From assembly GCA_046261635.1 (NCBI GenBank), contig JBHEOL010000172.1, positions 1-44,850 of the forward strand: a DNA stretch of 44,850 bases, read 5' to 3'. The DNA comes from Thermoanaerobaculia bacterium. GTDB lineage: Bacteria; Acidobacteriota; Thermoanaerobaculia; Gp7-AA8. This document shows positions 5,426 through 41,822 of this stretch, in pieces. The translations under genes and the position numbers were made by a program. The first letter of the stretch is position 1. Every line of letters starts with the position of its first letter. Below the pieces are notes generated by a model. It was not told the origin of the DNA. It saw nothing but the letters and a program-made list of their open reading frames with translations, and did no database searches.

Positions 5426-6997
5426 TCAGCCGCCGATCTTCAGTCCGCCGTAGTTGAACCGGAGGGTGGTCCGGAGCTCCCAGGCTGAGTCGTCATACAG
5501 CGCAGTTCCATTGATGAGGTACCCGGCAGCATCTCCGGGGAAGAAGACTCCGCCCCGGAGGGTCCAGATCAGGTTCTTCATCACGTTCCAGTCGAGCATG
5601 AAATCGACCTCGGAACCGAGATCGTCGGAGCTTGCCGCCCCGAACTCTCCCGGATCGATCGCTCCGTTGCCGTTGACGTCACTCCACGGACGCAGCGGTT
5701 CGGTCGCCTTCATGACCGTTCCCGAGAGGAACAGCTTCCACTGCGGGCGGATGGGGAAGGAGGCGTTGAGCTGCAGGAGCGTCGTGTTCTCGAACTCGCG
5801 ATAGCCGCGGGAGCCGGGCGATCCGAGGCCCTGGGGCGTGATCCCTTCCTCATCGGGCATGATCGAGTCTTCCCAGACCTCGTTCACGTAGAAGAAGCCG
5901 TTCGTGCGGATCTTGTTGATGTTGCCGTCGCCCGACATCGGGTCGTCGTCGCCGGATCCCATGCCGAAGACTGCTCCAACCGTCGCCTTGCCGACCGGCA
6001 TCTTCGCGTCGAGGTAGAGGTTGTATCCGGTCAGATCGCCGTTGTTGACGTCGAGGAGCTGATTGGGACCCGAGTTGACGTTCGGGACATCGTCGCTGCC
6101 GGTCAGGTAGTCGACTTCACCCTTGAGAGCGACTTTGCCGGCCTTTCCGGCGAACGCGAATCCGAGCGCGGTGACCTGGCTCAGGTTCGGGCGGAAGCGG
6201 GCGTTGAAGTACTGCAGCTCGTTCGGAGCGTAGGTGCGGCCGTCAATGTCCCCGCGGTCTCTGTAATAGGCAATGAAGGGATTGAGATTGAAGTTGCCGC
6301 GCTTGCCGGCGAAGTTGACGTAGAACAGATCAGAATCCTCTCCGCTGACTCCACCCGGGGCGACGTCGTCGGTGAGCGAGTCCGCGCCCTCGTACATCTT
6401 CGTCCAGTCGAAGGTCGTGACCCAGTTCCCGTACTTGCGCGAAACCTGAACTCCATCCCCGTCCTGGTCGAGGACGAGAAGGTTACCGAGCTTGTTCCCC
6501 ATGCGGCCGACGCGGAAGGTCGTCCCTGCGATCTGCTCGGGAGAGAACTCGACGTATGCCCAGTCGACGTGCATCAGGAAGTTCGTTTCCTTGTTGTTGA
6601 ACAGATTCGAGAAGCCGGGACGGTCATTGTCCCGCTGCTCGTTGTCGAGGCCGAAGATGGACTGGGCAATGTCGATCCGCACGACGCCTTTCAGGTTCGG
6701 CCCATAGCTGAGCTCGGGTTGAATCCTGAAGAGCTGGATCATGTACGCGTCGTGATCGGTGACGAGTCCGGGCGCGTCCTTGCCGAGAAAGAAGTTGTTC
6801 TGTGTATAGCCGTTGAACTCGTAGAAGCCGCCGAGGGTGAGCGCCAGCTTCGGATCGGGCGCGGGCGTCTTAGGCTGTCCCTCGGGGGCAAGCGGGGGGG
6901 TCTGGGGTGGCGGCGGGGTCGTCTGGGCGAACCCGGCGGCCGCGATCATCAGCGCGATCGCTGCGATCGCGATCCAACGGGGAAACTGCGTGTTCAT
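5426..6997 (-). CDS. Putative outer-membrane beta-barrel (porin-like) protein
   Basis: Start reassigned to ATG 6997, which has a GGAGAGAGG SD just upstream. Signal peptide MNTQFPRWIAIAAIALMIAAAGFAQ, then a Pro-rich linker. The remaining ~480 aa are rich in G/Y/N/D/F with alternating beta-strand-like patterns. No family recognised. Confidence 0.6.
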   Translation of the reverse strand: MNTQFPRWIAIAAIALMIAAAGFAQTTPPPPQTPPLAPEGQPKTPAPDPKLALTLGGFYEFNGYTQNNFFLGKDAPGLVTDHDAYMIQLFRIQPELSYGPNLKGVVRIDIAQSIFGLDNEQRDNDRPGFSNLFNNKETNFLMHVDWAYVEFSPEQIAGTTFRVGRMGNKLGNLLVLDQDGDGVQVSRKYGNWVTTFDWTKMYEGADSLTDDVAPGGVSGEDSDLFYVNFAGKRGNFNLNPFIAYYRDRGDIDGRTYAPNELQYFNARFRPNLSQVTALGFAFAGKAGKVALKGEVDYLTGSDDVPNVNSGPNQLLDVNNGDLTGYNLYLDAKMPVGKATVGAVFGMGSGDDDPMSGDGNINKIRTNGFFYVNEVWEDSIMPDEEGITPQGLGSPGSRGYREFENTTLLQLNASFPIRPQWKLFLSGTVMKATEPLRPWSDVNGNGAIDPGEFGAASSDDLGSEVDFMLDWNVMKNLIWTLRGGVFFPGDAAGYLINGTALYDDSAWELRTTLRFNYGGLKIGG

Positions 6998-7167
6998 TCC
7001 TCTCTCCTTTTCCTTGAAGCCCCTTCTGCATGGCTGGTCAGGTTGACGCTGGGACCGAGGGTCCGGGCGTCGCATGAACCCATCAATCATGGGGTCGACG
7101 TGATCATCACGAGGTGGCGCCAGCCACTCGGCAACGGGGACTGATCGCACCCCGGTCAGGGTCAAGC

Positions 7168-8535
7168 TCACTGCTGGTACCTCTGCTCGTAGAAGTCGAG
7201 CATCTTCTGAATTTCCTCCTTGCTCAGCCCGTGCTTCCAGGCGTGCTCGGGCATCTGGAGTGCTGCCGTGGTGACGCCCGGCATGGCATGCTCGGCCTGG
7301 GGCAGGAACTTGTTGTAGAAGTGCTTCGAAACTTCATAGAACCCGTGCCACTGGGTGAAGTCGGGTCCCATCATCGACGCCCCCATCCGAGCGCGGCGTC
7401 CTTCGTGGTGCCACAGTTCGTAGAACGTCCATTCGAGCTCTTCGTCGAACGGAGTCGGCGTGATCTTCCCCTCGGCCCTGAGGGTCTCCATGATGTCGTT
7501 GGCCGGGATCGCGAACTTGTCGTTGTAGAGCCCGACCGCGTCATCGAACATCTGGAAGTAGTTGGTGGTCCAGGTCTCGCCGTGGCATTCGAGGCAGACC
7601 TTGGTCATCCTGTCGCGGCGAATCTCCCACTCTTCGAGCCGCTTGGAGACGACCGGACGCAGAGTCCATGAGATGCGGTCGCCGATGTCGTGCGTGATTT
7701 TCTGGGTCGGCGTGGCGCTCATGTGGCACGTGGCACACGTGGGTGCGGCGGTGTAGTTCTTTCCCACGATCCACTCGTCGGCATCGAGATTCATCGCCTC
7801 GCGATGAGCGACGAACATGATCCCGTGCTTCGATTCCTCGAAGATCTCGATCTGCGGGTGATCCGGTCCCATGTGGCACCGGCCGCAGGTTCGCGGCTCA
7901 CGCGCCTGCGCCTTCGAGAAGTGATGACGCGTATGACAGGCGGTACAGGTGCCGATGGATCCGTCCGGGTTGACTCGGCCGATTCCGGTGTTCGGCCAGC
8001 TCCCCGGAAGAGGGACGCCTTTGTCGCTCACCTGGACGACCGAACCGTGACACTGTTTGCAGCCGAGGTTCGCGCCAGGCACGCCTTCGATGACCTCGCC
8101 GAGAATGTTGTCGAGGGAACCGATGAACTCAGCGGCCTTCGCATGGTGGGAGTCGGTGAACTGGTCGAACTGCTCCTTATGGCAGCTTTCGCAGTCCCGC
8201 GGGCTGGGGACCATTGCGACCTGATATCCCTCGTGAACCCAGAGGTCCTTGTCGCCCTCCTTCGCCTGGTGGCAGGACATGCAGCCGATTCCCTTGGCGG
8301 CATGGACCGACTTCTCCCACTGCCGTGAAAAGTCGACTGCCGCATGCTTTTCATCGTGACAGTTGATGCAGGCGCGCGTGACTTCGTCGGCGTGATACCG
8401 CGCCGTCTTCTCCGGCTTCGCGCGCTCTTTCTCGATCCAGCCGACGGCGATGGCCGACGCCGTGAAGGCCACGGCGAAGAGCGCTACGAGTACTTTCTTG
8501 AAATGCAAGCTCATGCTCCCTCCTGAAGAGCTCAT
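7168..8535 (-). CDS. Octaheme cytochrome c of the hydroxylamine oxidoreductase (HAO) family
   Basis: Eight CxxCH motifs (CINCH, CMSCH, CESCH, CKQCH, CTACH, CGRCH, CATCH, CLECH). The block CTACHTRHHFS...CGRCHMGPDH...SKHG resembles the heme-5/6 region of Nitrosomonas HAO as I recall it. N-terminal hydrophobic anchor/signal. 4-nt overlap with the cyt b gene. Confidence 0.85.
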   Translation of the reverse strand: MSSSGGSMSLHFKKVLVALFAVAFTASAIAVGWIEKERAKPEKTARYHADEVTRACINCHDEKHAAVDFSRQWEKSVHAAKGIGCMSCHQAKEGDKDLWVHEGYQVAMVPSPRDCESCHKEQFDQFTDSHHAKAAEFIGSLDNILGEVIEGVPGANLGCKQCHGSVVQVSDKGVPLPGSWPNTGIGRVNPDGSIGTCTACHTRHHFSKAQAREPRTCGRCHMGPDHPQIEIFEESKHGIMFVAHREAMNLDADEWIVGKNYTAAPTCATCHMSATPTQKITHDIGDRISWTLRPVVSKRLEEWEIRRDRMTKVCLECHGETWTTNYFQMFDDAVGLYNDKFAIPANDIMETLRAEGKITPTPFDEELEWTFYELWHHEGRRARMGASMMGPDFTQWHGFYEVSKHFYNKFLPQAEHAMPGVTTAALQMPEHAWKHGLSKEEIQKMLDFYEQRYQQ

Positions 8536-9638
8536 GACAGGGCTTCCCAGATCAGAAAAACGATCACCGTGGCGAGGAAAGCGCCCCCCACCACCGGTGC
8601 GATCTCGAGTTCGGGTTTACGGCGGCGGATTGCGCCGTCGATGAAAGGCCAGAAAAGGATTCCAAGGCCGGCGACGATGATCCCGGTCATGCCGAGCCAC
8701 AGCGGTGCGATCTTCAGCCACCTGAAGGCGGGGTAGAAGTACCACTCGGGCTTGACGTGGAGGGGGGTCACCTGCGGATTCGCCGGCTCACCGAGATGAG
8801 CCGGGAAAATCATCGCCAGCATCGTCACGGCGGTGACCAGGACCAGGCCGACGATCAGCTCCGTCGTCACATGATCAGGAAAGAACGCGAAGTAGCGGTT
8901 GGGATCGAACCTCTTCTTCCCCTCCCGATCCTCCTCCACGGTGATCGGCCGTTCCTGCACCTCTTTCGGGGCGTCGAGCTCCATGACCCCGTGGATCCTG
9001 AGGAGGAAGACGTGGAGGCCGATCAGAACCAGCGCCAGGACCGGCATCGCTCCGATATGCAGCACGTAAAGCCGCGTCAGCGTCGTCGGGGTGACCGTTG
9101 CGCCACCCCGCAGCAGCGCCGCGGTCCAGGGACCGACGAGCGGAAGCTGCCCCGCCACGTTCGTTCCGACCGTCGCCGCCCAATAGGAAAGCTGATCGTA
9201 AACGAGCGCGTAGCCCGTGAACGCGAACCCGAGCGTCACTCCGAGAAGCGCGACGCCCACCATCCAATTCAGCTCGCGCGGCTTCCGGTACGCGCCGGTG
9301 AAAAAGACCCGGATCGCGTGAAGGGCGACCGCCACGATCATCAGGTTCGCCGTCCAGTGATGCACCGAGCGAATCCACCAGCCGAACGGCACCGCCTCCT
9401 GGATCCGCTGCACCGATTGCCAGGCTCTTTCAGGGGAGGCTTCGTAATAGAACGTCAGCAGAATCCCCGTGGCGATCTGGATACCGAGAAGAATCAGGGG
9501 GGTGCCACCCAGCGCGTACCACCAGTTCTTCATGTGGTGCGGGATCGGTTCTTTCGACAGCTCCTCGAATACCTCGATGTCGACCGGCACTCGTTCCTTG
9601 ATGAACCGCTGCCACGAATTGACTCGTGTCGTCGTCAT
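8532..9638 (-). CDS. Cytochrome b (b6-like N-domain fused to subunit-IV-like C-domain)
   Basis: Strong by-eye similarity to cytochrome b6 (FGWWIRSVHHW, RKPRELNW, TLTRLY). His pairs are separated by 13 intervening residues (helix B) and 14 (helix D). KPEWYF (PEWY) motif in the C-terminal half. No CxxCH. Confidence 0.9.
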   Translation of the reverse strand: MTTTRVNSWQRFIKERVPVDIEVFEELSKEPIPHHMKNWWYALGGTPLILLGIQIATGILLTFYYEASPERAWQSVQRIQEAVPFGWWIRSVHHWTANLMIVAVALHAIRVFFTGAYRKPRELNWMVGVALLGVTLGFAFTGYALVYDQLSYWAATVGTNVAGQLPLVGPWTAALLRGGATVTPTTLTRLYVLHIGAMPVLALVLIGLHVFLLRIHGVMELDAPKEVQERPITVEEDREGKKRFDPNRYFAFFPDHVTTELIVGLVLVTAVTMLAMIFPAHLGEPANPQVTPLHVKPEWYFYPAFRWLKIAPLWLGMTGIIVAGLGILFWPFIDGAIRRRKPELEIAPVVGGAFLATVIVFLIWEALS

Positions 9639-22257: not shown

Positions 22258-22644
22258 TCACCCCTCTCGGTAGGTCGCACGCCCTCCCCCGAAGGACCAG
22301 TTCTCCTTCGGCACTTCGCGCAGCGAGACGATGACGTCGTCCGGACGGACACCGCAATCCCTCTCCAGGTTCGCGGCGATCGCCGCGTAGAGCCGCGCCT
22401 TGGTCTCCGCATCCCGCCCCTGATTGAGTGTGATCTCGATCAGCAGCGGGTCCTCCGACCTCTCCACGCCGCCGAAGCTCGGGTGGACGAGCAGGTTCTC
22501 CCGCGAATGCTCGTGGATCCAGCAGAACTGCGAGTCGGCGGGCGCCTTCGCGGCGCTGACGAGCGCCGCGAGGATCGCTTCACAGATCCGGCGCTTCTCG
22601 GAGGCGCTCTTTCCCTCGGTCAGATGCACGTGCATCAGCGGCAT
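22258..22644 (-). CDS. Tautomerase-superfamily protein
   Basis: Begins MP (Pro1 after Met removal). 128 aa. Resembles the long tautomerase family (EITLNQGRDAETKARLY). Confidence 0.6.
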   Translation of the reverse strand: MPLMHVHLTEGKSASEKRRICEAILAALVSAAKAPADSQFCWIHEHSRENLLVHPSFGGVERSEDPLLIEITLNQGRDAETKARLYAAIAANLERDCGVRPDDVIVSLREVPKENWSFGGGRATYREG

Positions 22645-22678
22645 TTCCCTTCTCCTTCCCAGAATTCGGAAGCGGCTC

Positions 22679-23575
22679 TCAATTCGCGCCGAGGTCCTGC
22701 CAGACTGCCCGCGAGATCGCAGCGATGAGCTCGTTGGCCTGGCCGGGATCCTCGAAACCGCGGGTCAGGACCACAAGGACATAAGGCAGACGCCCGGGCG
22801 GGTAGACGATCGCCGCGTCGTGGCTGATCCGGGTGATGTTGCCGGTCTTATTCGCGACGACGACCCCCTCGGGGACCCCGGCGGGGATCTTCTCGCGGAA
22901 CTCCTGTCCCCGCAGGATTTCGACCATGATCTGGCTGGCCCGGGGGCTGACCGCCTTCTGCTCGGCGATCGCCTTCATCACGAGCATCATGTCCCAGGCG
23001 GAGGTGACGTTGTTGAGACCGGCTTCGTATGCCTTTTCGTCCTCGACGCCCCGAAGAACGCGGATGTCGTTCGCGCCCAGGCGGCCCATGAGGTCCATCA
23101 CCGCCCCGGGGCCGACGAGCTCGATCAGCAGGTTGGTGGCCAGATTGGAGGAGCGGACGATCATCCTCCGGAGCAGATCCTCGAGGGGAACGGTCGATCC
23201 GGCCTCGTCGTACAGGCCCGGATCTCCATCCTCCCCGGCGTAAAGGACGAACGGCGACCCATCCACGATCGAGGCGAACTGGTTGCGGACCGCGACCGGT
23301 TGCTCGAGGGAGAGGCGCCCCTGATCCACCGCCTCCAGGACCGCGAGCATCACCGGCACTTTCATCGTGCTCGCCGCGTGCATCACCTCGCCCCCGGAGC
23401 GGGAGAGATGGAATCCGCTCTCGAGGTCCCAGAGCGCGATTCCGACAGTCCTGTCCGGCCCCGCGGAGGCGATGAGCCGATCGAGCTTTGAACCGAGCGC
23501 GCCGGGGCCGCGCATGGAAGTACAGGAGACCAGCAGAACGAGGAACGGAATGGCGAGGGCTTTCATCGGAACCAT
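22679..23575 (-). CDS. Class A beta-lactamase-like serine hydrolase, lipoprotein
   Basis: Lipobox (LLVSC). STMK (SxxK), SSN (SDN position), EAGLN (ExxLN) and KTG motifs in the correct order. Confidence 0.7.
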   Translation of the reverse strand: MVPMKALAIPFLVLLVSCTSMRGPGALGSKLDRLIASAGPDRTVGIALWDLESGFHLSRSGGEVMHAASTMKVPVMLAVLEAVDQGRLSLEQPVAVRNQFASIVDGSPFVLYAGEDGDPGLYDEAGSTVPLEDLLRRMIVRSSNLATNLLIELVGPGAVMDLMGRLGANDIRVLRGVEDEKAYEAGLNNVTSAWDMMLVMKAIAEQKAVSPRASQIMVEILRGQEFREKIPAGVPEGVVVANKTGNITRISHDAAIVYPPGRLPYVLVVLTRGFEDPGQANELIAAISRAVWQDLGAN

Positions 23576-30682: not shown

Positions 30683-31012
30683 ATGTTGCCCGAAGTCTTC
30701 GAATGCCCGGCGTGCCAGCGCCAGTTCGTTTTCGAGCTCGTCGATCTCGAGGGCGACCGTTCCATCAACTGCCCCCAATGCAAGCGCTATCTCGGCGAGA
30801 AGGACATTCACTACGTCCTCAAGAGCGAGATCGAGGAGCTCGAGGAGCGCCTCCGCTTCGAGCGGGACAGGCTCGAGAAGGACGAGGCGATCTACTCCCT
30901 CGGCGAGTACGACGCGGAGCTGAAGGCCTATGGCACCGAGATTTACAAGGTCGTCCAGGTGCTGCGCAGCCCCATCCAGGAGCTCGAGAACCTCCGGCTC
31001 ACCTACCGCTGA
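30683..31012 (+). CDS. Hypothetical zinc-ribbon plus coiled-coil protein
   Basis: CPAC...(22 aa)...CPQC pair followed by a heptad-like Glu/Leu-rich segment. Preferred over the low-complexity antisense ORF 30617..31033. Confidence 0.45.
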   Translation: MLPEVFECPACQRQFVFELVDLEGDRSINCPQCKRYLGEKDIHYVLKSEIEELEERLRFERDRLEKDEAIYSLGEYDAELKAYGTEIYKVVQVLRSPIQELENLRLTYR

Positions 31013-31200: not shown

Positions 31201-31956
31201 CTAGATCTTCGACTCTTTCTTCGCCAGTCCCGCGAGGATATCGACCGGGAGAGGGAAAACGATGGTGGTGTTTCTCTCGACTCCGATCTCGGTCAGGGTC
31301 TGCAGGTAGCGCAGCTGGATGGCGATCGGCTCGGTTGCGAGGACCTTCGATGCGTCGGCCAGGCGTTGCGCGGCGCTGAACTCTCCCTCGGCATGGATGA
31401 TCTTCGACCGGCGCTCGCGCTCGGCCTCGGCCTGCCTCGCCATCGCGCGCGTCATGACCTCGGGGAGGTCGACCTGCTTGACCTCGACGTTGACGACCTT
31501 GACTCCCCAGGGAGCGGTGTGCCGGTCGAGAATCTCCTGAATCCTGTTGTTCAGTTTCTCTCTCTCGGCGAGCAGCTCGTCCAGCTCGACTTCTCCGAGC
31601 ACCGAGCGCAGAGTCGTCTGCGCGAACTGGGACGTCTGGTAGCGATAATCGAACACTTCGATGACCGCCCGCTGAGGGTCGATCACGCGCAGAAAGATGA
31701 CCGCGTTGACCTTGATCGTGACGTTGTCCCGGGTGATGACGTCTTGCGGTGGAACCTCGAACGCTTCCTGGCGAAGAGAGATCCTCACCATCCGGTCGAT
31801 CGGCGCGAACACGAGAATGAGGCCAGGTCCTTTCGGCTTCTCGAGCACTCGGCCGAGGCGGAAGATCACTCCCCTCTCGTACTCGGCGAGAATCTTGATC
31901 ACGCTCGCGAGGTAAATGAAGAGAACGGCCAAGGCGACGAGAATCGGGATACCCAT
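31201..31956 (-). CDS. SPFH/band-7 (stomatin-like) membrane protein
   Basis: Start at ATG 31956, sharing one base (TGATG) with the NfeD stop. TM helix, then SPFH core ([12 protein letters not shown]...[12 protein letters not shown]...AEAERERR). Confidence 0.85.
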
Positions 31957-33299
31957 CAGATCGACTCCTTCGTAACGGTTTCGCCGGTGCCATCCGCGGT
32001 CGCGGGCTCGACCTCGAGAATGAGATCGCGGACCGAACGGACCTTCACCGGCGTACCAGGTTGAATCGGAACGGCCGAACGGGCGCTCCAGATCTCGCCG
32101 TGAACGAATACTTTCCCCATCGGATCGAGGACAGTCTCGGCGACTCCGACCTCGCCCGCCATTCCCTCCGACCCCGTCGTGACGCGATTCCGCATCGAAC
32201 GCATCGCCAGGTTCATCAGGAACACGGCGATGATTCCGAACGGAACCGCCACGGCGAGTGCCGTCAGCCAGTTCACCCGCATCTCCGGGATCGGTCCATC
32301 GACCAGAAGAATAGCTCCGAGAAACATCGAGATCACCCCCGCGGTGCCGAAGATCCCGTGGCTCGTGAATTTCGCCTCGAGGGCGAAGAAGCCGAACGCC
32401 ACCACGACCAGGGCCAGGGCAGCATACCGCGTGGGAAGCATGTTCAGGGCGATCACCGCGAGCAGGATCGAAAGCGCGCCGATGGCTCCCGGAAGAATCG
32501 CTCCCGGATTCTGGAATTCGGCCCAGAGAGCCAGCATCCCGAGCGAAAGAAGCACGAAGGCGATGTTCGGATTCATGATGAAGGCTAGCAGTCGCTGCCG
32601 CAGCGTAAGCTCGACTTTGTGGATGGTCGCCCCGGCCACATCGAGGGTCACCACGCTGCCGTCGAAGCGCCGGATCTCGCGGCCGCTCACGAACTTCAGG
32701 ACCGCCTCCATGTCGCCGGCGATCAGGTCGATCAGCCCCAGCTCGAGGGCTTCTGCCTCGGTCCACGCCACGGATTCCCGGACCCCACGCTCGGCCGCCT
32801 CCGGATTCCGGCCCCTCCGCTCGGCCAGGCTGCGGATGAACGCCGCCGAGTCGTTCTGCATTTTCTGCTGAAGGACTTCGTCCGGCTCGGCGTTCATCAG
32901 GATGGGATGCGCCGCTCCCGTGTTCGTTCCAGGCGCCATGACGGCGACGTCGGCTGCCACGAGGATGAACAGGCCCGCGGACGCGGCACGCTCTCCGGGC
33001 GGAGCTACCCAGACCACGACCGGGACAGGAGAAGTCAGGATTCGATTCACCAGCCGCCGGGTGGTCGTCTCCATTCCGCCGGGGGTCGAGAGCGAGATCA
33101 CGAGCAAGTCGTCACCCCGCTCCACAGCCTGGGCGATGGCGCTCTCGAGGATCTCATCCGTGACCGGAAGGATCATCTGATCGAGCTCGAGGTGGGTGAC
33201 GCCGGCGAACATCGGCATCGAACCGAGCAGGAGAACGCAGAAACTCAGAGTCAGCCGGAGTCGCATCCATGATCTCCAGGCGCCGCTGGACGCCCGCAT
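31956..33299 (-). CDS. NfeD-family membrane-bound ClpP-class serine protease
   Basis: ClpP-like N-domain (ISLSTPGG..., [13 protein letters not shown]...[11 protein letters not shown]). Multi-TM middle region. C-terminal OB-like NfeD domain ([14 protein letters not shown]). Confidence 0.85.
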
Positions 33300-33335: not shown

Positions 33336-34013
33336 TCATTCGGGCTTGCGGGGAGGGATTCCGGTCGCCTCGCTGATGCTGAGCTCCGCGAGCATGCGCA
33401 GGAAGTCACGCCCCTCCTCGTCGGCATCCTCGTACGCCTTGCGCAGGCTTGCGAGCTGCTCATCTTCCTCCCAGGCCGCGACCGTGAATCCATCCGGGGG
33501 CTGGTCGGGGAGGAGCGAAGGAACCTTTTTCCAGCTCCCGGAGACGTAACGATAGCTGATGAATCCGGTCTGCGTGGAGCGGCGCGCAGAACCGAGCGCC
33601 GTCAGGGTCGCATCGCCGTCGATCCGATTGAGATCGCGCATGCCGAACGCATTCGCTTCCTGCGCGGCGACGACCCGGGCCACGTGCTCGGCGATCATCT
33701 TGCGGAGCCGGGATGCCGATTCTCCGAGCGCCGCCGTCACGTCGAGCCCGGAACTGAAGCTCGCGCCCTCCGGCGCCTCGCCGCGGCTATGCACGACGCG
33801 ACACTCGAATCGGAGCGTCTCCTCCCCCCACGAAAACGAGAGGATTCCTGTCAGCCCCTGCTCCAGGGGAACTTGATGGTCGATGAATGCTCCGACCAGT
33901 CCAATCTCGTACAGTCGGACTGGTCGGCCATCAAATTCCGCCTCCAGCGGATGAGCCAGATCGAGGCGGTGGAACCGGCGACGCTCGTCGTGCACTTCGC
34001 TCACCCGCCGCAT
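33336..34013 (-). CDS. PilZ-like protein with a conserved uncharacterised C-terminal domain (paralog A)
   Basis: N-terminal RRFHR (RxxxR) plus EIGLVG at the [DN]xSxxG position. The C-terminal ~70 aa aligns without gaps to ORF 37161..37811, with about half the positions identical (WKK, LPxQPxxGFTVA, ADxEGR, ELSIS). Confidence 0.6.
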   Translation of the reverse strand: MRRVSEVHDERRRFHRLDLAHPLEAEFDGRPVRLYEIGLVGAFIDHQVPLEQGLTGILSFSWGEETLRFECRVVHSRGEAPEGASFSSGLDVTAALGESASRLRKMIAEHVARVVAAQEANAFGMRDLNRIDGDATLTALGSARRSTQTGFISYRYVSGSWKKVPSLLPDQPPDGFTVAAWEEDEQLASLRKAYEDADEEGRDFLRMLAELSISEATGIPPRKPE

Positions 34014-34362
34014 TCTACCCGAGGCCCGGCCGCAGACTCTATCGTTCCGACCGAGAAGCCCCGGAAAGGCTCATGGCGCCTCGACGATGAACTCCACGCT
34101 TTCCCCCGCCTCCTCGGGATGCAGCGAGCACCAGGCCACATACGTTTCGGGCTGAAGGTCCACCTGCATCGTGGCCTCCGCGCCCGGGTCGAGGTTCTCG
34201 CCCAGGACTCCTGACGCCGCGTTGTCGGCGGATCCCTCGACCGAAAGCGTCCTCATTTCGATCTCCGCTTTCAGCAGCTCATCTCGAGTGGGAAGTGCCG
34301 ACCGTGGGCCGGGCTCGAGGAGCCAGGGAATCGGTCGGCAGGCTCGGCTGGTATCGCCGGGG

Positions 34363-36081
34363 GTGAAAAGCAGTAGAATCTCGATCGGATTGGTTCCGAA
34401 AACCCTCGTCTGCCTGCGTGAAGGCTACAGCTGGCCCGCGTTCGGTCGCGACGCGATGGCGGGGCTGGTCGTCGGAATCGTCGCCATCCCCCTCGCTCTG
34501 GCCTTCGCCATCGCCTCCGGAGTTCCTCCTGAAAGAGGACTTTACACGGCCATCGTCGCGGGATTCATCATTTCGCTCCTCGGCGGAAGCCGGGTTCAGA
34601 TCGGCGGGCCGACGGGCGCTTTCGTCATCATCATCGCGGGGATCGTCGGGAAACACGGGATCGACGGTCTGGCGATCTGCACCATGCTCGCGGGCGGGAT
34701 CTTTCTCATCCTCGGGCTCGCGCGGATGGGGAATCTGATCAAATTCGTCCCCTATCCCGTGACGACGGGTTTCACGGCGGGGATTGCCGTGGTGATCTTC
34801 TCGTCCCAGATCCGCGATCTGCTGGGGCTTCAGATGAACGCGATCCCTCCGGATTTCTTCGAAAAGTGGACGGCGATCTTCGGCGCGATCGGCACGGTTC
34901 ACTGGCCGACCGTGGGCATCGCAGCGACGACGCTGGCGATCCTCGTCGGCTGGCACCGCGTGTCGAGACTGATTCCCGCGCCGTTCGTCGCGATGGTGGC
35001 CGCGACCGCGGCGGTTGCGCTGCTCGATCTTCCCGTGGAGACCGTCGGATCGAGATTCCACGCGATCCCCGCGATGCTTCCGATGCCCTCGCTGCCGGCG
35101 ATTCCATCGAACGGGATCGCCGAGCTCGTGTCGCCGGCGATCTCGATTGCGCTGCTCGCGGCGATCGAATCGTTGCTCTCCGCGGTCGTCGCCGACACGA
35201 TGATCGGAACCCGTCACGACTCGAACCAGGAGCTCGTCGCCCAGGGAATCGCCAATATCGCCTCGCCTCTTTTCGGGGGGATTCCCGCAACGGGAGCGAT
35301 CGCCAGGACGGCGACGAACGTGAGAACAGGCGGGCGGACGCCTTTCGCGGGGATGATTCACGCGATCACGATTTTGCTGGTTCTCATTCTCTTCGGCAGG
35401 TACGCCCTCATGGTGCCGCTCGCCGCCCTCGCCGCGATTCTGGTGATCGTGGCCTACCATATGAGTGAGTGGCGCTCGTTCCGCTCCCTTCTGAGCGCGC
35501 CTCGCAGCGACGTGGCTGTACTTCTGCTCACCTTCATGCTCACGGTCGTGGTCGATCTGACCGTGGCCGTGCAGGTCGGAGTCGTCGCCGCGGCGCTCCT
35601 GTTCATGAAGCGGATGTCGGAGCTCACCGACGTCTCGGGGATCACGGGAAACGTCGTTGAGAACGAGGATGGCGATGTGACGTTTTCGAGAGGGCGGGCC
35701 GTGACCATCGATCGCGAGCCGATCCCGCCCGGAATCGAGATTTACGAAGTCCAGGGACCGTTCTTTTTCGGAGCCGCGGACAAGCTTCGCGAGGTCGTCG
35801 GCGGAATCGCGAAGCCTGCGAGGGTCGTCATCCTGCGGATGCGCCACGTGCCCGCGATCGACGCGACCGGGATGCACGCCCTCGAGCAGGTTCTCGACCG
35901 CTGCCGCGCCAGCGGCGGAGAGATGATCCTGGCGGAAGTCAGACCGGGCCCGCTGAGGACTCTGCTCGTCGCCGGAAAGCTCGAGAAGTTCGGGCGGCGG
36001 AACATCGCGCAGAGCATGACGAGCGCGATGCGCCGGGCCCGGAACATCGTAGGGGAGCGGCGCGAAGTGCTCGCTCCTTAG
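34363..36081 (+). CDS. SulP-family anion transporter with C-terminal STAS domain
   Basis: SulP N-terminus (GRDAMAGLVVGIVAIPLALAFAIASG). ~11 TM segments. STAS domain (IYEVQGPFFFGAADKL...AIDATGMHAL). Start uncertain: GTG 34363 or TTG 34390. Confidence 0.85.
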   Translation: MKSSRISIGLVPKTLVCLREGYSWPAFGRDAMAGLVVGIVAIPLALAFAIASGVPPERGLYTAIVAGFIISLLGGSRVQIGGPTGAFVIIIAGIVGKHGIDGLAICTMLAGGIFLILGLARMGNLIKFVPYPVTTGFTAGIAVVIFSSQIRDLLGLQMNAIPPDFFEKWTAIFGAIGTVHWPTVGIAATTLAILVGWHRVSRLIPAPFVAMVAATAAVALLDLPVETVGSRFHAIPAMLPMPSLPAIPSNGIAELVSPAISIALLAAIESLLSAVVADTMIGTRHDSNQELVAQGIANIASPLFGGIPATGAIARTATNVRTGGRTPFAGMIHAITILLVLILFGRYALMVPLAALAAILVIVAYHMSEWRSFRSLLSAPRSDVAVLLLTFMLTVVVDLTVAVQVGVVAAALLFMKRMSELTDVSGITGNVVENEDGDVTFSRGRAVTIDREPIPPGIEIYEVQGPFFFGAADKLREVVGGIAKPARVVILRMRHVPAIDATGMHALEQVLDRCRASGGEMILAEVRPGPLRTLLVAGKLEKFGRRNIAQSMTSAMRRARNIVGERREVLAP

Positions 36082-36087
36082 CGGAAC

Positions 36088-36882
36088 TCAGCGGGGAAAG
36101 CTCGCGATCCGTTGCGCGACTTCTCGCTGGAACTTCCGCGTGGATCGATCCACCTTCTTGACGTAATCGCGCGTCTCCCGATAGGGCGGAACCCCACCGT
36201 AGACCCGAACCGTCCCCGGACCTGCGTTGTACGCAGCCAGCACCATGACCGGATCGTCGAACTGCTTCTGGAGATGTTTCAGGTAACGCGTGCCGGCGCG
36301 AATGTTCTGCACCGGATCCATCATGTCCGTGGTTCCCATCAGAGCCGCCGTGCTCGGGAGAAGCTGCATCAGACCGTGGGCGTTCTTGTTCGAGATCAGG
36401 CGGGGACGAAAGTCCGATTCCGTCTTCACGACCGCGGCGACCAGCTCTGGCGCCAGACCCTGGCTCCGGGCCTCGCGGTAAATGATCTCGCCGTACGGAA
36501 CCTCCGATCGGAAGAACTCCTCGCGCACCTTCTCGATCATCAACGGATTCGGCAAGGCCAGCGACCTCCCGAAAGTCGTCATGTCCAGATCCTGAAGGAA
36601 TGGGATCGCGCTGTTGACCCGATACCTCTCGGCCTGAAGGGCGGTGGCAGCCATGATGACCGCCTCGTCAGCGTCGGTTTTTTCCGAAAATGCGAGATCG
36701 AATGCATCGAGAGGATAGACCGCGCCGAACGCGGCCAGGGTCAGCCCGAGCAGAAGGTAGCGCCGCATGCGCACGCGGGCCCGTTTGAGCCTTCCGTGGG
36801 TCTGGCAGCTGCAGATCTGGCGGAAGTTCTCCGCGGTGACTCCAGCCGCGCGCTTTCGTTCTCGAGTACTGGCTTCGTTCAT
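36088..36882 (-). CDS. Lytic transglycosylase (SLT domain)
   Basis: ESDFRP...HGLMQLLPSTA...AAYNAGPG motifs. GGAG SD before ATG 36882. An alternative start at ATG 36768 would give a plain signal peptide. Confidence 0.8.
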   Translation of the reverse strand: MNEASTRERKRAAGVTAENFRQICSCQTHGRLKRARVRMRRYLLLGLTLAAFGAVYPLDAFDLAFSEKTDADEAVIMAATALQAERYRVNSAIPFLQDLDMTTFGRSLALPNPLMIEKVREEFFRSEVPYGEIIYREARSQGLAPELVAAVVKTESDFRPRLISNKNAHGLMQLLPSTAALMGTTDMMDPVQNIRAGTRYLKHLQKQFDDPVMVLAAYNAGPGTVRVYGGVPPYRETRDYVKKVDRSTRKFQREVAQRIASFPR

Positions 36883-37160
36883 AACGTCTCCGGAGGGCTC
36901 GTGCGCAAAATCCGAACCAGGAGGCCCGTCATTTACGGATCAGTTGAAGCATCAAGAAGATACGGAAAGAGACGGGCGCACAACACGCTTTAAATAACTC
37001 TTTCCGGAGGATGCCCTGCCACCCGCGCCCGACCGCGATCCATCGCTGCGGCACCAGCACCGAGCGGCGCTCTTGTGAGGAGAGCCCAAGGGGTCCGATC
37101 GTTCAGCAATCATTCGAGGATGTAAATTCCCCGGCTCGGCCCAAACAGCCCAGCCTCCCG

Positions 37161-37811
37161 TCAACGCGCCCCCGGAGGGGCTTCGTCCAAGGTGGTGCGA
37201 GGGACGTTCATTGCATCACTGATACTCAGTTCACAGAAAAGACGGAGGAGCCGCCGCCCCTCGTCGTCCGCCTGCTCCCAGGATCGACAGAGCCGCTGAA
37301 GATCGTCACGGTCCTCGTTGATGGCGACGGTGAAGCCGGAATCGGGCTGTTCGGGCAGCCAGGCTCTCCTCTTTTTCCAGACGCCGTCCTCGAACGAATA
37401 GCAGATGAACTGGGCGTCGCGAGGGCGAAGAGTGTCGTCGAGATCGGGTGAGGCCGGATCGAGGTGCCGCTTGACCAGAAGGGCCGTGACCGAGGCGCTC
37501 AGAGCCCGGCGCAGAGCATCAGCCCCGAGGGTCCCTCCAGAGGTGAACAGGACTCCGCTGCGGAACTGATCTTCCGCGATCCGCTCGGTTCGGACGATCT
37601 GTGCCGCGAGCTCGATCGATTCACTGAACCAGGAGAAGTGAAGGGGTGCCTCGGTTCCGATCTCGAGGGGGGCGGAATGCTCGACTCTGGCGCCTGAAAC
37701 GCCGATCTCGAGGATGTGCGCGGAGCGGGCGGCGAAGGAGGCGTCCACGGGCGAATCGAGGAGCAGCCGTTGAAACTCCCGACGCTCCGCCCTGCGGCCG
37801 GTCCCGGTCAA
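37161..37811 (-). CDS. PilZ-like protein with a conserved uncharacterised C-terminal domain (paralog B)
   Basis: REFQR (RxxxR) plus EIGVSG. Shares its C-terminal domain with ORF 33336..34013. 4-nt overlap with the upstream PAS-GGDEF-EAL gene. Confidence 0.6.
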   Translation of the reverse strand: MTGTGRRAERREFQRLLLDSPVDASFAARSAHILEIGVSGARVEHSAPLEIGTEAPLHFSWFSESIELAAQIVRTERIAEDQFRSGVLFTSGGTLGADALRRALSASVTALLVKRHLDPASPDLDDTLRPRDAQFICYSFEDGVWKKRRAWLPEQPDSGFTVAINEDRDDLQRLCRSWEQADDEGRRLLRLFCELSISDAMNVPRTTLDEAPPGAR

Positions 37812-39583
37812 TGATCCACCGTGAAGGCCTTCCCCGCGGCGAGGGCCGGCATCGGAGGCCCGAACAGAAATCCCTGCATCTGATCGCAGCGATGTTCCTT
37901 CAGGAACTCGTACTGGGAGGGCGACTCGACCGATTTCCCGATGATCCCGAGATCGAGCGCCCTCGCCGCGGCGATGATGGACGAGAGGATTGCAGCCTCG
38001 CGCTGCTTGAAGCCGTCGCTGAGCGAGCGCGAATCGATCTTGACCAGGTCGATGGGATAGCGCTGGAGATCACGAAATGCCGCCGTTCCGCCGCCGAAGT
38101 CGTCGATGATGAGATGGACGCCGAGACCCTTGAGCCGGGAGAGGATTTTCTTCGCCTGGGCGGGATCGCGCGAGGCGATCGCCTCGGTTACTTCCAGTCC
38201 AAGCAGCGACGGATCGAGAGAGCAGTCCGACAGCGCGCGCTCGACGATGGCCGGAAGATCGTCGGCATCGAACTGGCGGGCCGAAAGATTGACGGTGATC
38301 CGCATGGGGGAACCGTCGCCGGCCCAGGTTTGGGCCTGCCGGCAGGCCGACCGCAGCACCCATTCCCCGATCGGGAGCATCAGCCTCGAATCCTCGGCCA
38401 CGGCGAGGAAGTCGGCCGGGCTCACCACCCCTCGGGAAGGGTCGTTCCAGCGGATGAGAGCCTCCATCTCGACCGGCCTCCGGGAGGCGGCCGAGATGAT
38501 CGGCTGGTAGTAAACGACGAACTCCTCGCGCTCGAACGCCCTGCGGAGGTTGCTTTCGAGAGTGACCCGCTCGAGAAACAGCGAGTTGCTTTCCGGGGTG
38601 CAGAAGCTGTAGCCGTTACGCCCCGAGTTCTTGGCCCGGTACATTGCGCTGTCGGCGTTCTTCATCAATGTGTCGGGATCCTCGCCATCGCGCGGAAAGA
38701 GGGCGATGCCCATGCTCGCGCTGATGTAGAGTTGATGCTCCTCGAAGGCGAAGCGATGGGCGAGCTCGTCGAGGATCTTCCTGGCGATTCGCGCCGGATC
38801 ATCCTCGTGGGCGATCTCCGAGAGCAGCACCGCGAACTCGTCGCCGCCGAGGCGGCCGACCGTATCGGAGGTCCGAGTCGACTCCTGCAGGCGCGAGGCG
38901 ACGGCGTCGAGAAGCTGGTCGCCGACGGCGTGGCCCAGCGTGTCGTTGATGCGCTTGAAATGATCGAGGTCGATGTAGAGGACGGCGACGAGCCGCTTGA
39001 ATCGTCGCGCGTGCGCCAGGGCGATCGTCAGCCGGTCCTGGAACAGCGTCCGGTTTGGAAGCCCGGTCAACTCATCGTGATAGGCGAGATAGGCGATGTG
39101 GTCTTCGACGCGCTTTCTTTCGGTCACGTCGCGCGCGTAGCTGACGATTTCCCGCGTCGCCTCCGTCGTGTCGCACGACGAGCTCATCTCCACCCACCTG
39201 GTGCGGCCGTCCCGGGTGATCGCCCGGTAGCTGAAAGCCCACGGAAACCGATCGCGGCAGACGCTGGCCAGATACTCCCGGATCGCAGCGTGGTCCTCAG
39301 TGTCGGTGAACTCGAAGATCGCGCGCCCCATGAGCTCTTCCCGCTGGTAGCCGAGCAGGGGGAACGCGGCACTGGACACGTAGAGAAACTCCCCCGCCTC
39401 GCTCATCCGGGTGATCAGGTCGGGAGAGGTTTCGACGATGTCGCGAAACTTCTGCATGTTGTCGGCGGACGCGCGTCCACCGCGTCGCCGGCGATCGGCA
39501 CGGTAACCGAGCATCAGCGCCCCGGCAAGCAGAAGCGCCGCTGCAGAGCCCCACACAACGAGGGCTTCAAAGGGAATCGTCAT
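37808..39583 (-). CDS. Membrane-anchored PAS-GGDEF-EAL c-di-GMP turnover protein
   Basis: One N-terminal TM segment. PAS domain. GGDEF with an RxxD I-site (RTSD-TVGRL-GGDEF). EAL domain (EALIRW, LEVTE, DDFGGG), but GKSVE where EGVE is expected. Confidence 0.9.
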   Translation of the reverse strand: MTIPFEALVVWGSAAALLLAGALMLGYRADRRRRGGRASADNMQKFRDIVETSPDLITRMSEAGEFLYVSSAAFPLLGYQREELMGRAIFEFTDTEDHAAIREYLASVCRDRFPWAFSYRAITRDGRTRWVEMSSSCDTTEATREIVSYARDVTERKRVEDHIAYLAYHDELTGLPNRTLFQDRLTIALAHARRFKRLVAVLYIDLDHFKRINDTLGHAVGDQLLDAVASRLQESTRTSDTVGRLGGDEFAVLLSEIAHEDDPARIARKILDELAHRFAFEEHQLYISASMGIALFPRDGEDPDTLMKNADSAMYRAKNSGRNGYSFCTPESNSLFLERVTLESNLRRAFEREEFVVYYQPIISAASRRPVEMEALIRWNDPSRGVVSPADFLAVAEDSRLMLPIGEWVLRSACRQAQTWAGDGSPMRITVNLSARQFDADDLPAIVERALSDCSLDPSLLGLEVTEAIASRDPAQAKKILSRLKGLGVHLIIDDFGGGTAAFRDLQRYPIDLVKIDSRSLSDGFKQREAAILSSIIAAARALDLGIIGKSVESPSQYEFLKEHRCDQMQGFLFGPPMPALAAGKAFTVDH

Positions 39584-39797: not shown

Positions 39798-41822
39798 TCA
39801 GGCGATCCCGCGCCAGGCTCGATGATGCGTCATGAAGCGGTCAAACGACTCGGCCGGCAAAGGACGGCTGAACAGGTACCCCTGGAGTTTGTCGCATTCA
39901 TTTGCCCGCAGAAACTCGAGCTGGCTCAGAGTCTCCACGCCTTCGGCCATGACCTGAAGACTCATGCTGTGGGCCATCGCGATCACGCCGGATACGATCT
40001 TCGCATCCTGCGGCGCGATCAGATCGCGTACGAACGACTGGTCGAGCTTGAGGGTGTCGACGGGAAATTGCTTGAGGTAGCTCAGCGAGGAATAGCCAGT
40101 TCCGAAGTCGTCGATCGCAACGCGGACTCCGAGCTCCTTCAACTCGTGCAGAGTCCGGATCGTTCGCTGGACGTCATGCATCGCACTCGTCTCGGTGATC
40201 TCGAGCTCGAGAAGGCGTGGAGGAAGCCTCGACTCTTCGAGAGCGAGGCGAATCGTATCGATCAGGTCGGGCTGCTGGAACTGGCGCGCGGAGAGGTTGA
40301 CCGACACGACGAGGTCGACTCCCTTCTGACGCTGCCAGAATCTCGCCTGCCTGCATGCTTCTCGTACGACCCACCCGCCGATCGGTACGATGAGACCGGA
40401 CACTTCCGCCGTGGGGATGAACTGGTCGGGAAGGATCGTCCCTTTTTCCGGATGGTTCCACCGCAGAAGAGCCTCGAGGCCGTAAATGCCGCCCGACTGG
40501 AGGTCGATCAGGGGCTGGTAGTAGAGCTCCAGCTCCTGATTGCGCATCGCGCGTCGCAGCCCGCTCTCGAGCTCGAGCAACTCGAGCGCTCGGGAGTTCA
40601 TCGACGCCGTGTAGAACTGGTAACCATCCCCACCATGATGCTTGGCCCTGTACATCGCCGTATCGGAGTTCTTCACCAGGGCCTCGGCGTCTGCCCCGTC
40701 GTTCGGAAAGATCGCGATTCCGAGCGAGGCGGTCACGAACACCTCCCTTGCACCCAGCGGGAAAGGAGATGCGAGGACGTCCAGAATCTTGCGGGCGACC
40801 TTTCCGGCGTGCTCGGCATGGGCGAGCGCGTGGATCAGAATCGCGAACTCGTCACCGCCCAGACGAGCCACGGTGTCCTCGTCGCGAACCGTCTGCCGGA
40901 TCCGATTCGCCGCCGTCTTGAGCAACTGGTCGCCCATCGTGTGTCCGAGAGAATCGTTGACCTGCTTGAACCGGTCGATGTCGAGGAAGAGAATCGCGAG
41001 CTTTCCCTGATGCCTGCTCGCATGGCTGATCGCGACGGCGAACCTGTCGAGAAACAGGGCTCGGTTCGGGAGCCCGGTGAGCGGATCGTGATAGGCGATG
41101 TGCTCGACCTGCGAGGCCGCCGTCAAGGCCGCCTGCCTCTCGTCCTCGAGAATGCTCATCCCCATCGCAACGGCCGCAGCCATCATCACCATCGAGTCGA
41201 TGCCCGTCGACGCCATCGGCCAGGGGAACGCAACTCCCGCCGAGATGGCAACAAGCCCCGAGACGAATCGCAGCAGGGCGGCGACTCCCGCCACGAGGAA
41301 CGGAATTGCGAGAAGCGCGTGCGTCGCATCCGAGTCACGGTGGCCGCGCAGCCTGTTTCCCGACCAGACCAGAGCGGCTCCAGTGAGCAGCGACTGGAGC
41401 TGGAGCGGAAGATCGATTCGATAGCGCGGCTCATCCGGAAGGATCAGAAGGAACAGCGCGAGGGCGAGCGAGCCCGCGGCGCAAGCGATCAGGAGCTTCC
41501 GGGCCCGCGCGAGCTCGAACCGTCTCCGGCTGGCGAGCTCCCACGCCCCCCAGCAGATCAGTGCCGCACTCGCCGCGCCGGCTCCTCCGAGAATCACGGA
41601 AATCAGGAACCGAAGAAGACCCGCTCCAGCAAATGCGGCTGGAAGAGAAGCGGCGACCGCAGCGGCGAGCCAGAACGCCGACATCGCGAGGAACGCACGC
41701 CCCCAGAGGAGAAGATCGTTCCTGGAGAATCGCCGATGGAGGAGGAAGATCGACAGCGCGAGAACGAGTGCGACGCAGCAGCGCGAGAGCAACGCAGCGA
41801 TGACGTTGAGCTCAACGCCCAT
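39798..41822 (-). CDS. Polytopic-membrane-sensor GGDEF-EAL protein
   Basis: ~7-8 N-terminal TM helices. GGDEF with I-site (RDED-TVARL-GGDEF). Canonical EAL motifs (EALLRW, LEITE, DDFGTG, AEGVET, QGYLF). Confidence 0.9.
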   Translation of the reverse strand: MGVELNVIAALLSRCCVALVLALSIFLLHRRFSRNDLLLWGRAFLAMSAFWLAAAVAASLPAAFAGAGLLRFLISVILGGAGAASAALICWGAWELASRRRFELARARKLLIACAAGSLALALFLLILPDEPRYRIDLPLQLQSLLTGAALVWSGNRLRGHRDSDATHALLAIPFLVAGVAALLRFVSGLVAISAGVAFPWPMASTGIDSMVMMAAAVAMGMSILEDERQAALTAASQVEHIAYHDPLTGLPNRALFLDRFAVAISHASRHQGKLAILFLDIDRFKQVNDSLGHTMGDQLLKTAANRIRQTVRDEDTVARLGGDEFAILIHALAHAEHAGKVARKILDVLASPFPLGAREVFVTASLGIAIFPNDGADAEALVKNSDTAMYRAKHHGGDGYQFYTASMNSRALELLELESGLRRAMRNQELELYYQPLIDLQSGGIYGLEALLRWNHPEKGTILPDQFIPTAEVSGLIVPIGGWVVREACRQARFWQRQKGVDLVVSVNLSARQFQQPDLIDTIRLALEESRLPPRLLELEITETSAMHDVQRTIRTLHELKELGVRVAIDDFGTGYSSLSYLKQFPVDTLKLDQSFVRDLIAPQDAKIVSGVIAMAHSMSLQVMAEGVETLSQLEFLRANECDKLQGYLFSRPLPAESFDRFMTHHRAWRGIA

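Follow-up and report, generated by a model that had tools for sequence, protein, structure and literature searches.

Computational analysis of a Thermoanaerobaculia PilZ protein family with an undescribed C-terminal module

Introduction

PilZ is the archetypal receptor domain for cyclic dimeric guanosine monophosphate (c-di-GMP), and it is known to have diversified by being fused to large effectors, by taking up tetramer-forming inserts, and by way of PilZ-derived domains at the N-terminus. Here, we describe PilZ-X, a family of two-domain proteins represented by par1 (open reading frame (ORF) 33336-34013) and par2 (ORF 37161-37811) on contig JBHEOL010000172.1 of a Thermoanaerobaculia bacterium (assembly GCA_046261635.1); "the window" denotes the whole 44,850-nucleotide stretch analysed, positions 1 to 44,850. 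A sequence-only reading of this DNA had pointed to the two genes as paralogs sharing an unrecognised C-terminal domain. Thermoanaerobaculia is an abundant soil and sediment class, its members in our dataset are all metagenome-assembled genomes (MAGs), and a literature search on PilZ proteins or c-di-GMP in the class found nothing.

The canonical PilZ layout consists of six strands and a C-helix. MapZ contacts c-di-GMP with the side chains of Asp and Ser in motif 2, [D/N]hSxxG. The h residue of this motif contacts two C-helix residues and has been proposed to read out the binding of c-di-GMP, and the C-helix itself mediates protein-protein interactions in MapZ, MrkH, BcsA, PilZ-FimX, and Alg44 (Galperin & Chou, bioRxiv 10.1101/814665).

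MapZ (PA4608) of Pseudomonas aeruginosa resembles PilZ-X in being a small soluble PilZ protein that combines a six-stranded barrel with an RxxxR loop and a long, partner-engaging C-helix. Unlike MapZ, PilZ-X adds a conserved linker and a ~67-aa module after the C-helix, which the module, judged by covariation, seems to cover, and its motif 2 often reads E/D-h-G-x-x-G. YcgR, PlzD (VCA0042), MotI, and MrkH are two-domain c-di-GMP receptors of similar length (~210-250 aa) whose second domain cooperates with a canonical PilZ; however, that extra domain is N-terminal, a PilZ-derived barrel lacking the C-helix (Galperin & Chou, bioRxiv 10.1101/814665). PilZ-X reverses this YcgR-type xPilZ-PilZ order, with an N-terminal, C-helix-bearing PilZ domain and a C-terminal extra domain of β3-α2 build showing no detectable PilZ relation. 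Among solved structures, Lpg0364 of Legionella pneumophila (4q63) is nearest in sequence to the N-terminal domain and also carries E at the D/N position (E-I-S-S-N-G), but is a stand-alone 105-aa PilZ-type protein, itself uncharacterised, with neither linker nor module. Alg44 and BcsA, like PilZ-X, join a canonical PilZ domain bearing the C-helix to an effector part that is not PilZ, yet those effectors are large membrane-bound polysaccharide-synthesis machines rather than a 67-aa soluble module.

Results

Two paralogs of a lineage-restricted family

Par1 and par2, both present on the minus strand, possess the common domain plan read earlier from the letters and align at 36% identity over ~205 residues (BLASTP, E 2e-37). 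The RxxxR motif (R12-R-F-H-R16 in par1, R11-E-F-Q-R15 in par2) is followed ~20 residues later by E-I-G-x-x-G-A (E36-I-G-L-V-G-A42 and E35-I-G-V-S-G-A) and then by PLExG...FSW (PLEQG...FSW and PLEIG...FSW). The C-terminal 78-85 residues are 44% identical, with the module aligning without gaps, close to the half identity first estimated, and every element of the conserved string reported for this region is correct (F-I-x-Y, WKK, LP-x-QP, GFTVA, AD-x-EGR-x-LR, and ELSIS). The AQxANA motif is missing from par2, as are 13 linker residues, most of par1's linker segment being deleted in par2 and its clade. The database gene call of par1 begins three codons downstream, at GTG, and the sole possible start codon of par2 is TTG (37811-37809), with GGTGGA just upstream. 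The window contains exactly two PilZ-X genes.

A word-indexed search returned 76 homologous clusters, with the named ones all from Thermoanaerobaculia or Acidobacteria and annotated "hypothetical" or "PilZ domain-containing". An exhaustive profile search with the module alone yielded 398 clusters (50% identity) at E<=1e-3 and 266 at E<=1e-10, the module occupying the C-terminus of ~190-250-aa proteins, a recurrence well past what chance would produce. Scanning species-representative genomes with the query alignment A1 confirmed 228 PilZ-X loci, and the best 80 of these are all Thermoanaerobaculia/Acidobacteriota MAGs except one Rhodanobacteraceae-labelled contig. This contig (L085; DASYJJ010000264.1, 2237 bp), from a "Rhodanobacteraceae bacterium" MAG and the sole non-Acidobacteriota label in the best 80, is probably a binning error, since its PilZ-X> CoA-transferase< order is the same as in Thermoanaerobaculia loci (arrowheads give gene direction). 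Several genomes carry 2-3 copies, and the most divergent named representatives are likewise Thermoanaerobaculia/Acidobacteriota. Mapping the distribution therefore upholds the proposal of a lineage-specific family, all named sources being Thermoanaerobaculia/Acidobacteriota. Par1 and par2 are best explained as small, soluble, acidic cytoplasmic proteins of this Thermoanaerobaculia-specific family.

The family PilZ barrel is present in 102 of 105 full-length module-bearing representatives. In the three exceptions (P0081, P0102, and P0109), linker and module stand behind unrelated N-termini in which the hidden Markov model (HMM) finds no PilZ barrel; these probably stem from chimeric or frameshifted gene calls in metagenomes, though they could be rare genuine alternative fusions. 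We judge that the module never credibly occurs without PilZ.

The N-terminal PilZ domain and its ligand motifs

The full-length AlphaFold2 model of par1, built on the family alignment, has a mean predicted local distance difference test (pLDDT) score of 84.6. Six strands (residues 16-27, 30-38, 41-46, 55-62, 65-78, and 86-95) and a helix (99-122) that finishes in an AQEANAxG motif form a canonical PilZ barrel with its long C-helix, at block pLDDT values of 80-98. Foldseek against the PDB places the c-di-GMP-bound PilZ domains of BcsA, MotI, YcgR, PA4608-like, Alg44, MrkH, and PlzD structures at the top, with probability ~1.0. A profile of 35 family members retrieves the PilZ-type structure 4q63 (Lpg0364) at E 4.8e-8 over residues 3-94, and MapZ/PA4608 weakly. 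Pfam PilZ (PF07238) is matched by 66 of 98 diverse family members at E<=0.01 (best E 2.8e-11); no other family recurs in the Pfam scan of these 98, and Pfam PilZN, YcgR_2, and DUF5634_N have no matches in par1, par2, or family members. With structure, profile, and family matches in agreement, the PilZ identity first suggested by the motifs holds, and for par1 and par2 the N-terminal domain is, as modelled, a PilZ fold.

Among 180 full-length members, RxxxR is present in 155. Motif 2 position 36 is D in 104, E in 53, and N in 21 (178/180), position 38 is S in 93 and G in 79 (172/180), and the glycine G41, with A next, is kept in 165; the strict [DN]xSxxG form is carried by 75. Given how frequent E and G are at positions 36 and 38, the E-I-G-x-x-G of par1 and par2 is a common within-family variant. 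Judged by these motifs, the family is a PilZ family, with par1 and par2 as motif-2 variants in it.

Par1, par2, and other E-h-G members might nevertheless be ligand-blind adaptors that have lost c-di-GMP binding and act constitutively, like PilZ (PA2960) and some tetrameric PilZ proteins. Consistent with this, motif 2 is altered at both ligand-contacting positions, from D/N to E and from S to G, the Pfam PilZ match is sub-threshold in par1 and absent in par2, and loss of the binding motif is recurrent in PilZ evolution (Galperin & Chou, bioRxiv 10.1101/814665). However, the strict retention of RxxxR in par1, par2, and 155/180 members is hard to explain without a ligand, the exchange of D/N for E is conservative, and the motif glycine is kept. 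PA2989, with Ser at the D/N position, still binds c-di-GMP (Galperin & Chou, bioRxiv 10.1101/814665), and par2 appears translationally coupled to a GGDEF-EAL enzyme. We consider ligand blindness unlikely, though a real possibility given the variant motif 2, and binding of c-di-GMP by par1 and par2 plausible from their sequences.

The C-terminal module and its predicted contact with the C-helix

Modelled alone (residues 148-225), the module, ~67 aa long, folds into three strands and two helices with a pLDDT of 87 and a predicted template modelling (pTM) score of 0.72; for the ~67-aa module itself, pLDDT is ~90. The strongest sequence constraint in PilZ-X proteins falls here: W161, Q171, P172, G175, F176, T177, L190, R202, R206, and A209 are invariant or near-invariant over the 180 full-length members, and alignment A3 (98 sequences) has its three invariant columns (W161, Q171, and G175) and seven of its eight near-invariant ones inside the module. 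From helical periodicity, we infer two sites where the conserved residues gather, the loop P169-D-Q-P-x-D-G-F-T177 and a single face of the last helix (D198, R202, R206, and E210; i, i+4). A DNA-binding output is unlikely, the module having no helix-turn-helix match and an acidic isoelectric point (pI ~4.6), which itself argues against DNA binding.

Mean-field direct coupling analysis (DCA) of 252 sequences (effective number, Meff, ~194; ~24,000 pairs; 12 bootstraps) recovers the in-barrel contacts A42-V92 and H46-S88, which form one antiparallel register, and the pair E65-K105, which joins the barrel to the C-helix. Between the domains, I107-L208, linking the C-helix to the module, is in the top 40 in 12/12 bootstraps with a median rank of 7. 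R104-L211 (median rank 48) shares its antiparallel register, and the swaps seen at 107/208 are size-compensating (I/L, L/F, and M/V). The pair I37-I107, in which I37 is the h residue of par1 motif 2, is in the top 40 in 8/12 bootstraps. These couplings suggest that the last helix of the module packs on the PilZ C-helix; with clades few and Meff low, we hold the covariation as suggestive only.

Alternatively, the module may complete the ligand site, with W161, R202-x-x-x-R206, D198, and E210 clamping c-di-GMP, or an intercalated dimer, against the barrel, so that the output would be the closed two-domain shape itself. Such a composite site would be analogous to the c-di-GMP bridge between two domains in YcgR, PlzD, and MrkH. 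The module exceeds the barrel in conservation, is never credibly found without it, and holds Arg (i, i+4), Asp/Glu, and Trp, the kinds of residue that contact c-di-GMP in many receptors. The motif-2 S/G position also covaries with module Q186 (G38-Q186, top 40 in 7/12 bootstraps), and G38 clades tend to an aromatic residue at 181, where S clades have a small one. Yet R202, R206, D198, and E210, spaced at i, i+4, could be plain intrahelical salt bridges, covariation is confounded by clade structure, and the strongest interdomain signal goes to the C-helix rather than to the ligand site. We regard a composite site as distinctly improbable.

Profile and structure searches, which took in no library of predicted cellular structures and no HHpred-type database, returned no named family for the small module. 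Pfam, searched with every sequence of the module alignment, gave nothing above threshold, the helix pair alone drawing sub-threshold MEDS matches, and NCBIfam gave no match to the module. Sequence-profile searches of the PDB produced noise only at an alignment diversity (Neff) of 2.5 and, at Neff 4.4, only compositional matches to designed helical repeats (E>=0.03). Foldseek of the module reached a best E of 0.89 against the PDB (probability <=0.11, template modelling (TM) score <=0.33) and 0.38 against the viral folds of BFVD. Three candidates were examined and rejected. Designed helical repeat proteins, the best PDB matches of the deeper profile (E 0.03-0.2), reflect helix composition only. 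The MEDS domain (PF14417) is sub-threshold in 11/35 members (best E 0.011), its matches covering profile positions 77-114 of 161, the two helices only, with the window's own module (alignment member 1) scoring 13.9 bits against a cutoff of 29.8. An MbtH-like fold, considered for its topology and its W...P-x-G-[FW]...LC-x-x-YE motif, reaches an hhalign probability of 0.2% for both module profiles against PA2412, a sequence checked against the PDB (MbtH-like structures 2gpf/2pst); Foldseek ranks 2pst 17th (E 2.2, TM ~0.3), and Pfam MbtH has no match. That the module is a divergent member of a described small fold, overlooked at ~67 residues since Foldseek has little power for so small a β3-α2 unit, is very doubtful when the weak MEDS signal and the loose MbtH likeness are set against the lack of a credible match in Pfam, NCBIfam, both PDB profiles, and Foldseek of the PDB and BFVD.

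The first reading, which could match the C-terminal module to no named family, is thus borne out, and PilZ-X is supported, as far as computation goes, as a PilZ family specific to one lineage whose undescribed C-terminal module is obligately tied to PilZ. The further description as an effector family with an unknown output domain stands for the lineage-specific family and the unrecognised module; "output" was an assumption, and the module may instead be a transducer integral to the protein, not an output that can be exchanged.

Context-specific subfamilies

A neighbour-joining tree and gene order in 73 non-redundant loci resolve context-specific PilZ-X subfamilies, clades a-e. Clade a follows an SLT lytic transglycosylase, often with MtgA and a DUF7144-like membrane protein further upstream, and is convergent with a membrane GAF histidine kinase; its motif 2 is E/D-h-G-h-h-G, AQxANA is absent, and the linker is shortened. 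AQxANA is present in the other four clades. Clade b (D-h-G-x-x-G) is divergent from the GAF kinase, and after it come HAD, a 71-aa membrane protein, CoA-transferase, and a Zn-ribbon protein. Clade c, with the canonical D-V-S-A-x-G, lies in the order M20 peptidase, SDR, CusF-like protein, PilZ-X, MoeA, and clade d (E/D-h-G/S-L-V-G) in the order cupredoxin-like lipoprotein, PilZ-X, NfeD, SPFH. Clade e (D-I-S or E-x-S) occupies other contexts.

Par1 falls in clade d and par2 in clade a and, belonging to different subfamilies, they are old paralogs. A recent tandem duplication was rejected, as the tree separates them into two old subfamilies that each have a distinct synteny; the first impression of two diverged copies within 4 kb is right in that they are paralogs and wrong insofar as it implied local duplication. 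SLT, the commonest same-strand neighbour of the par2-type subfamily elsewhere, lies within four genes of PilZ-X in 27/73 loci; in 18 cases it immediately precedes PilZ-X on the same strand, at a median gap of 43 nt.

A block conserved in many Thermoanaerobaculia genomes places a sensor kinase between two PilZ-X paralogs, in the order MtgA> DUF7144-like membrane protein> SLT> PilZ-X(a)> GAF-HisKA-HATPase membrane kinase< PilZ-X(b)> HAD< 71-aa membrane protein> CoA-transferase< Zn-ribbon< (L012, L014, L031, L034, L035, L036, L038, L039, L046, and L057, near position 6000 in each). In clade c, the gene for the CusF-like periplasmic copper-binding protein overlaps the PilZ-X start, with a median gap of -4 nt (L004, 5687-6597; L007, L027, L029, L037, L050, L054, L066, L074, L079, and L083), an arrangement that suggests translational coupling. 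Two subfamilies, the CusF-linked one and the par1 clade, stand directly behind genes for small exported proteins of metal-binding type.

Genomic neighbourhood of par1 and par2

Table 1. Positions of the PilZ-X genes, their domains and motifs, and neighbouring genes in the window
Feature	Position	Strand	Description and basis
par1	33336..34013	-	225 aa; PilZ + linker + C-terminal module
par1 PilZ domain	33648..33980	-	Secondary structure of model, Foldseek, 4q63 profile match
par1 RxxxR (R12-R16)	33966-33980	-	Sequence
par1 motif 2 (E36-I-G-L-V-G41)	33891-33908	-	Sequence
par1 linker (residues 123-150)	33564..33647	-	Conserved GxRxxNxIDGDxTLTAxG, low model confidence
par1 C-terminal β3-α2 module (residues 151-217)	33363..33563	-	Isolated model + conservation
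par2	37161..37811	-	216-aa paralog of par1
par2 RxxxR	37767-37781	-	Sequence
par2 motif 2 (EIGVSG)	37692-37709	-	Sequence
par2 C-terminal module (residues 135-200)	37212..37409	-	Gapless alignment to par1 module
SPFH/Band 7 gene	31201..31956	-	Pfam
NfeD gene	31956..33299	-	Pfam; 36 nt downstream of par1
SulP-STAS gene	34171-36081	+	
SLT-domain lytic transglycosylase	36088..36882	-	Pfam; between par2 and par1
PAS-GGDEF-EAL gene	37808..39583	-	Pfam; immediately upstream of par2
Membrane GGDEF-EAL gene (N-terminal membrane region)	39798..41822	-	Pfam; further upstream

The placement of one copy in a GGDEF-EAL operon holds: the TTG start of par2 overlaps the TGA stop of the PAS-GGDEF-EAL gene (TTGA), best explained, on this arrangement, as translational coupling of par2 to the enzyme in a local source-and-receptor pair. 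In the window, as in the close relative L001, the clade-a gene is found upstream of SLT with GGDEF-EAL genes directly before it, and in L001 an ortholog of the membrane GGDEF-EAL gene lies upstream of the par2 ortholog. By eye, both GGDEF-EAL proteins retain intact GGDEF, an RxxD I-site five residues before it, EAL, DDFG(T/G)G, K(I/L)D, and QG(F/Y). With motifs that look intact, either could make or degrade c-di-GMP.

The order par1-NfeD is repeated in L001 and L009, and par1 is best explained as heading an NfeD-SPFH operon. The SPFH ATG (31956-31954) overlaps the NfeD stop (31958-31956), as in a typical translationally coupled pair. A 61-aa ORF (34071-34256, minus strand) is a C-terminal remnant of the cupredoxin-like lipoprotein (tblastn 37.5% identity, E 1e-7, residues 83-143). 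In L001 and L009 this gene is intact (143 aa, sub-threshold Pfam Cupredoxin_1) and directly precedes the par1 orthologs. Its upstream part is lost in the window, with in-frame stops, and the opposite-strand SulP-STAS gene fills the space. SulP-STAS also stands at the position corresponding to the GAF kinase of the conserved block, which the window lacks.

A zinc-ribbon CxxC...CxxC protein (30683-31012, plus strand, 109 aa, very high third-position G+C content (GC3) of 0.91), with no Pfam family above threshold, is a conserved neighbour adjoining the CoA-transferase in at least 11 related loci. Pfam gives no match at E<=1e-5 for two further sizeable ORFs, 5426-7171 (minus strand, 581 aa) and 22424-23491 (plus strand, 355 aa); the former lies within a respiratory-type cluster of a molybdopterin oxidoreductase (2695-4956), a multihaem cytochrome (7168-8535), and cytochrome b (8532-9638). 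The remaining window is ordinary chromosomal DNA encoding BamA, LpxD, Clp ATPase, DnaB, the molybdoenzyme/cytochrome cluster, and a sigma-54 two-component pair. Scans of the whole window for tRNAs and Rfam families found nothing.

Discussion

We lean, with slightly more confidence than doubt, toward PilZ-X as a lineage-specific c-di-GMP receptor or adaptor with an undescribed, PilZ-dependent transducer module. In the mechanism we propose, the N-terminal PilZ domain would sense c-di-GMP by means of the RxxxR loop, [D/E/N]-h-[S/G]-x-x-G motif, barrel, and C-helix. The conserved linker would tether the β3-α2 module, whose terminal helix would dock antiparallel on the PilZ C-helix and so cover the helix used for partner binding in other PilZ proteins. 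A signal could then be relayed from the ligand site through I37, the h residue, to I107 on the C-helix and on to L208 in module helix α2. Ligand binding would alter the exposed module surface, comprising the loop P169-T177 and the D198/R202/R206/E210 face, such that a target would be bound or released. Since this surface is near-invariant across subfamilies in different contexts, any target or co-ligand is probably common to all paralogs.

A more specific proposal, possible but rather less probable than otherwise, is that the module is a new PilZ-dependent transducing domain that docks on the C-helix and converts c-di-GMP into binding of a shared target, or completes the pocket, with the paralogs tying c-di-GMP to envelope functions. 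These paralogs stand in operons with different exported or envelope proteins: SLT with MtgA nearby, a CusF-like protein, or a cupredoxin-like lipoprotein with NfeD/SPFH, or with a divergent GAF histidine kinase.

Several observations weigh against a c-di-GMP receptor with a docked transducer module. Par1 and par2 depart from [D/N]hSxxG at two of four defined positions, keeping h and G, and the Pfam PilZ search gave par1 a match at E 8.5e-4 and 20.1 bits, under the gathering cutoff of 22.5, and par2 no match. With few large clades and the same Meff of ~194, clade-defining substitutions could yield the top interdomain pairs. Linker residues 131-150 have a pLDDT of 62-63, and the pTM of the full-length model is 0.59; this low-confidence linker and pTM leave the interdomain geometry unfixed by the model. 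The gene-order analysis found no single partner gene common to all subfamilies. GGDEF/EAL genes occur near only ~4/73 family loci (the window, L001, L005, and L019), and GGDEF/EAL linkage as a family trait was rejected, being limited to these lineages.

The impact is bounded by the restriction to one lineage and by the many PilZ fusions to uncharacterised regions that already exist. The family is compact (proteins of ~200 aa, each genome having 2-3 or more paralogs) and models well, making it amenable to heterologous expression. A non-PilZ C-terminal module that is obligate, highly conserved, and seemingly seated on the partner-binding C-helix would add one more route of PilZ diversification, and PilZ-X would offer a first entry point to c-di-GMP signalling in Thermoanaerobaculia.

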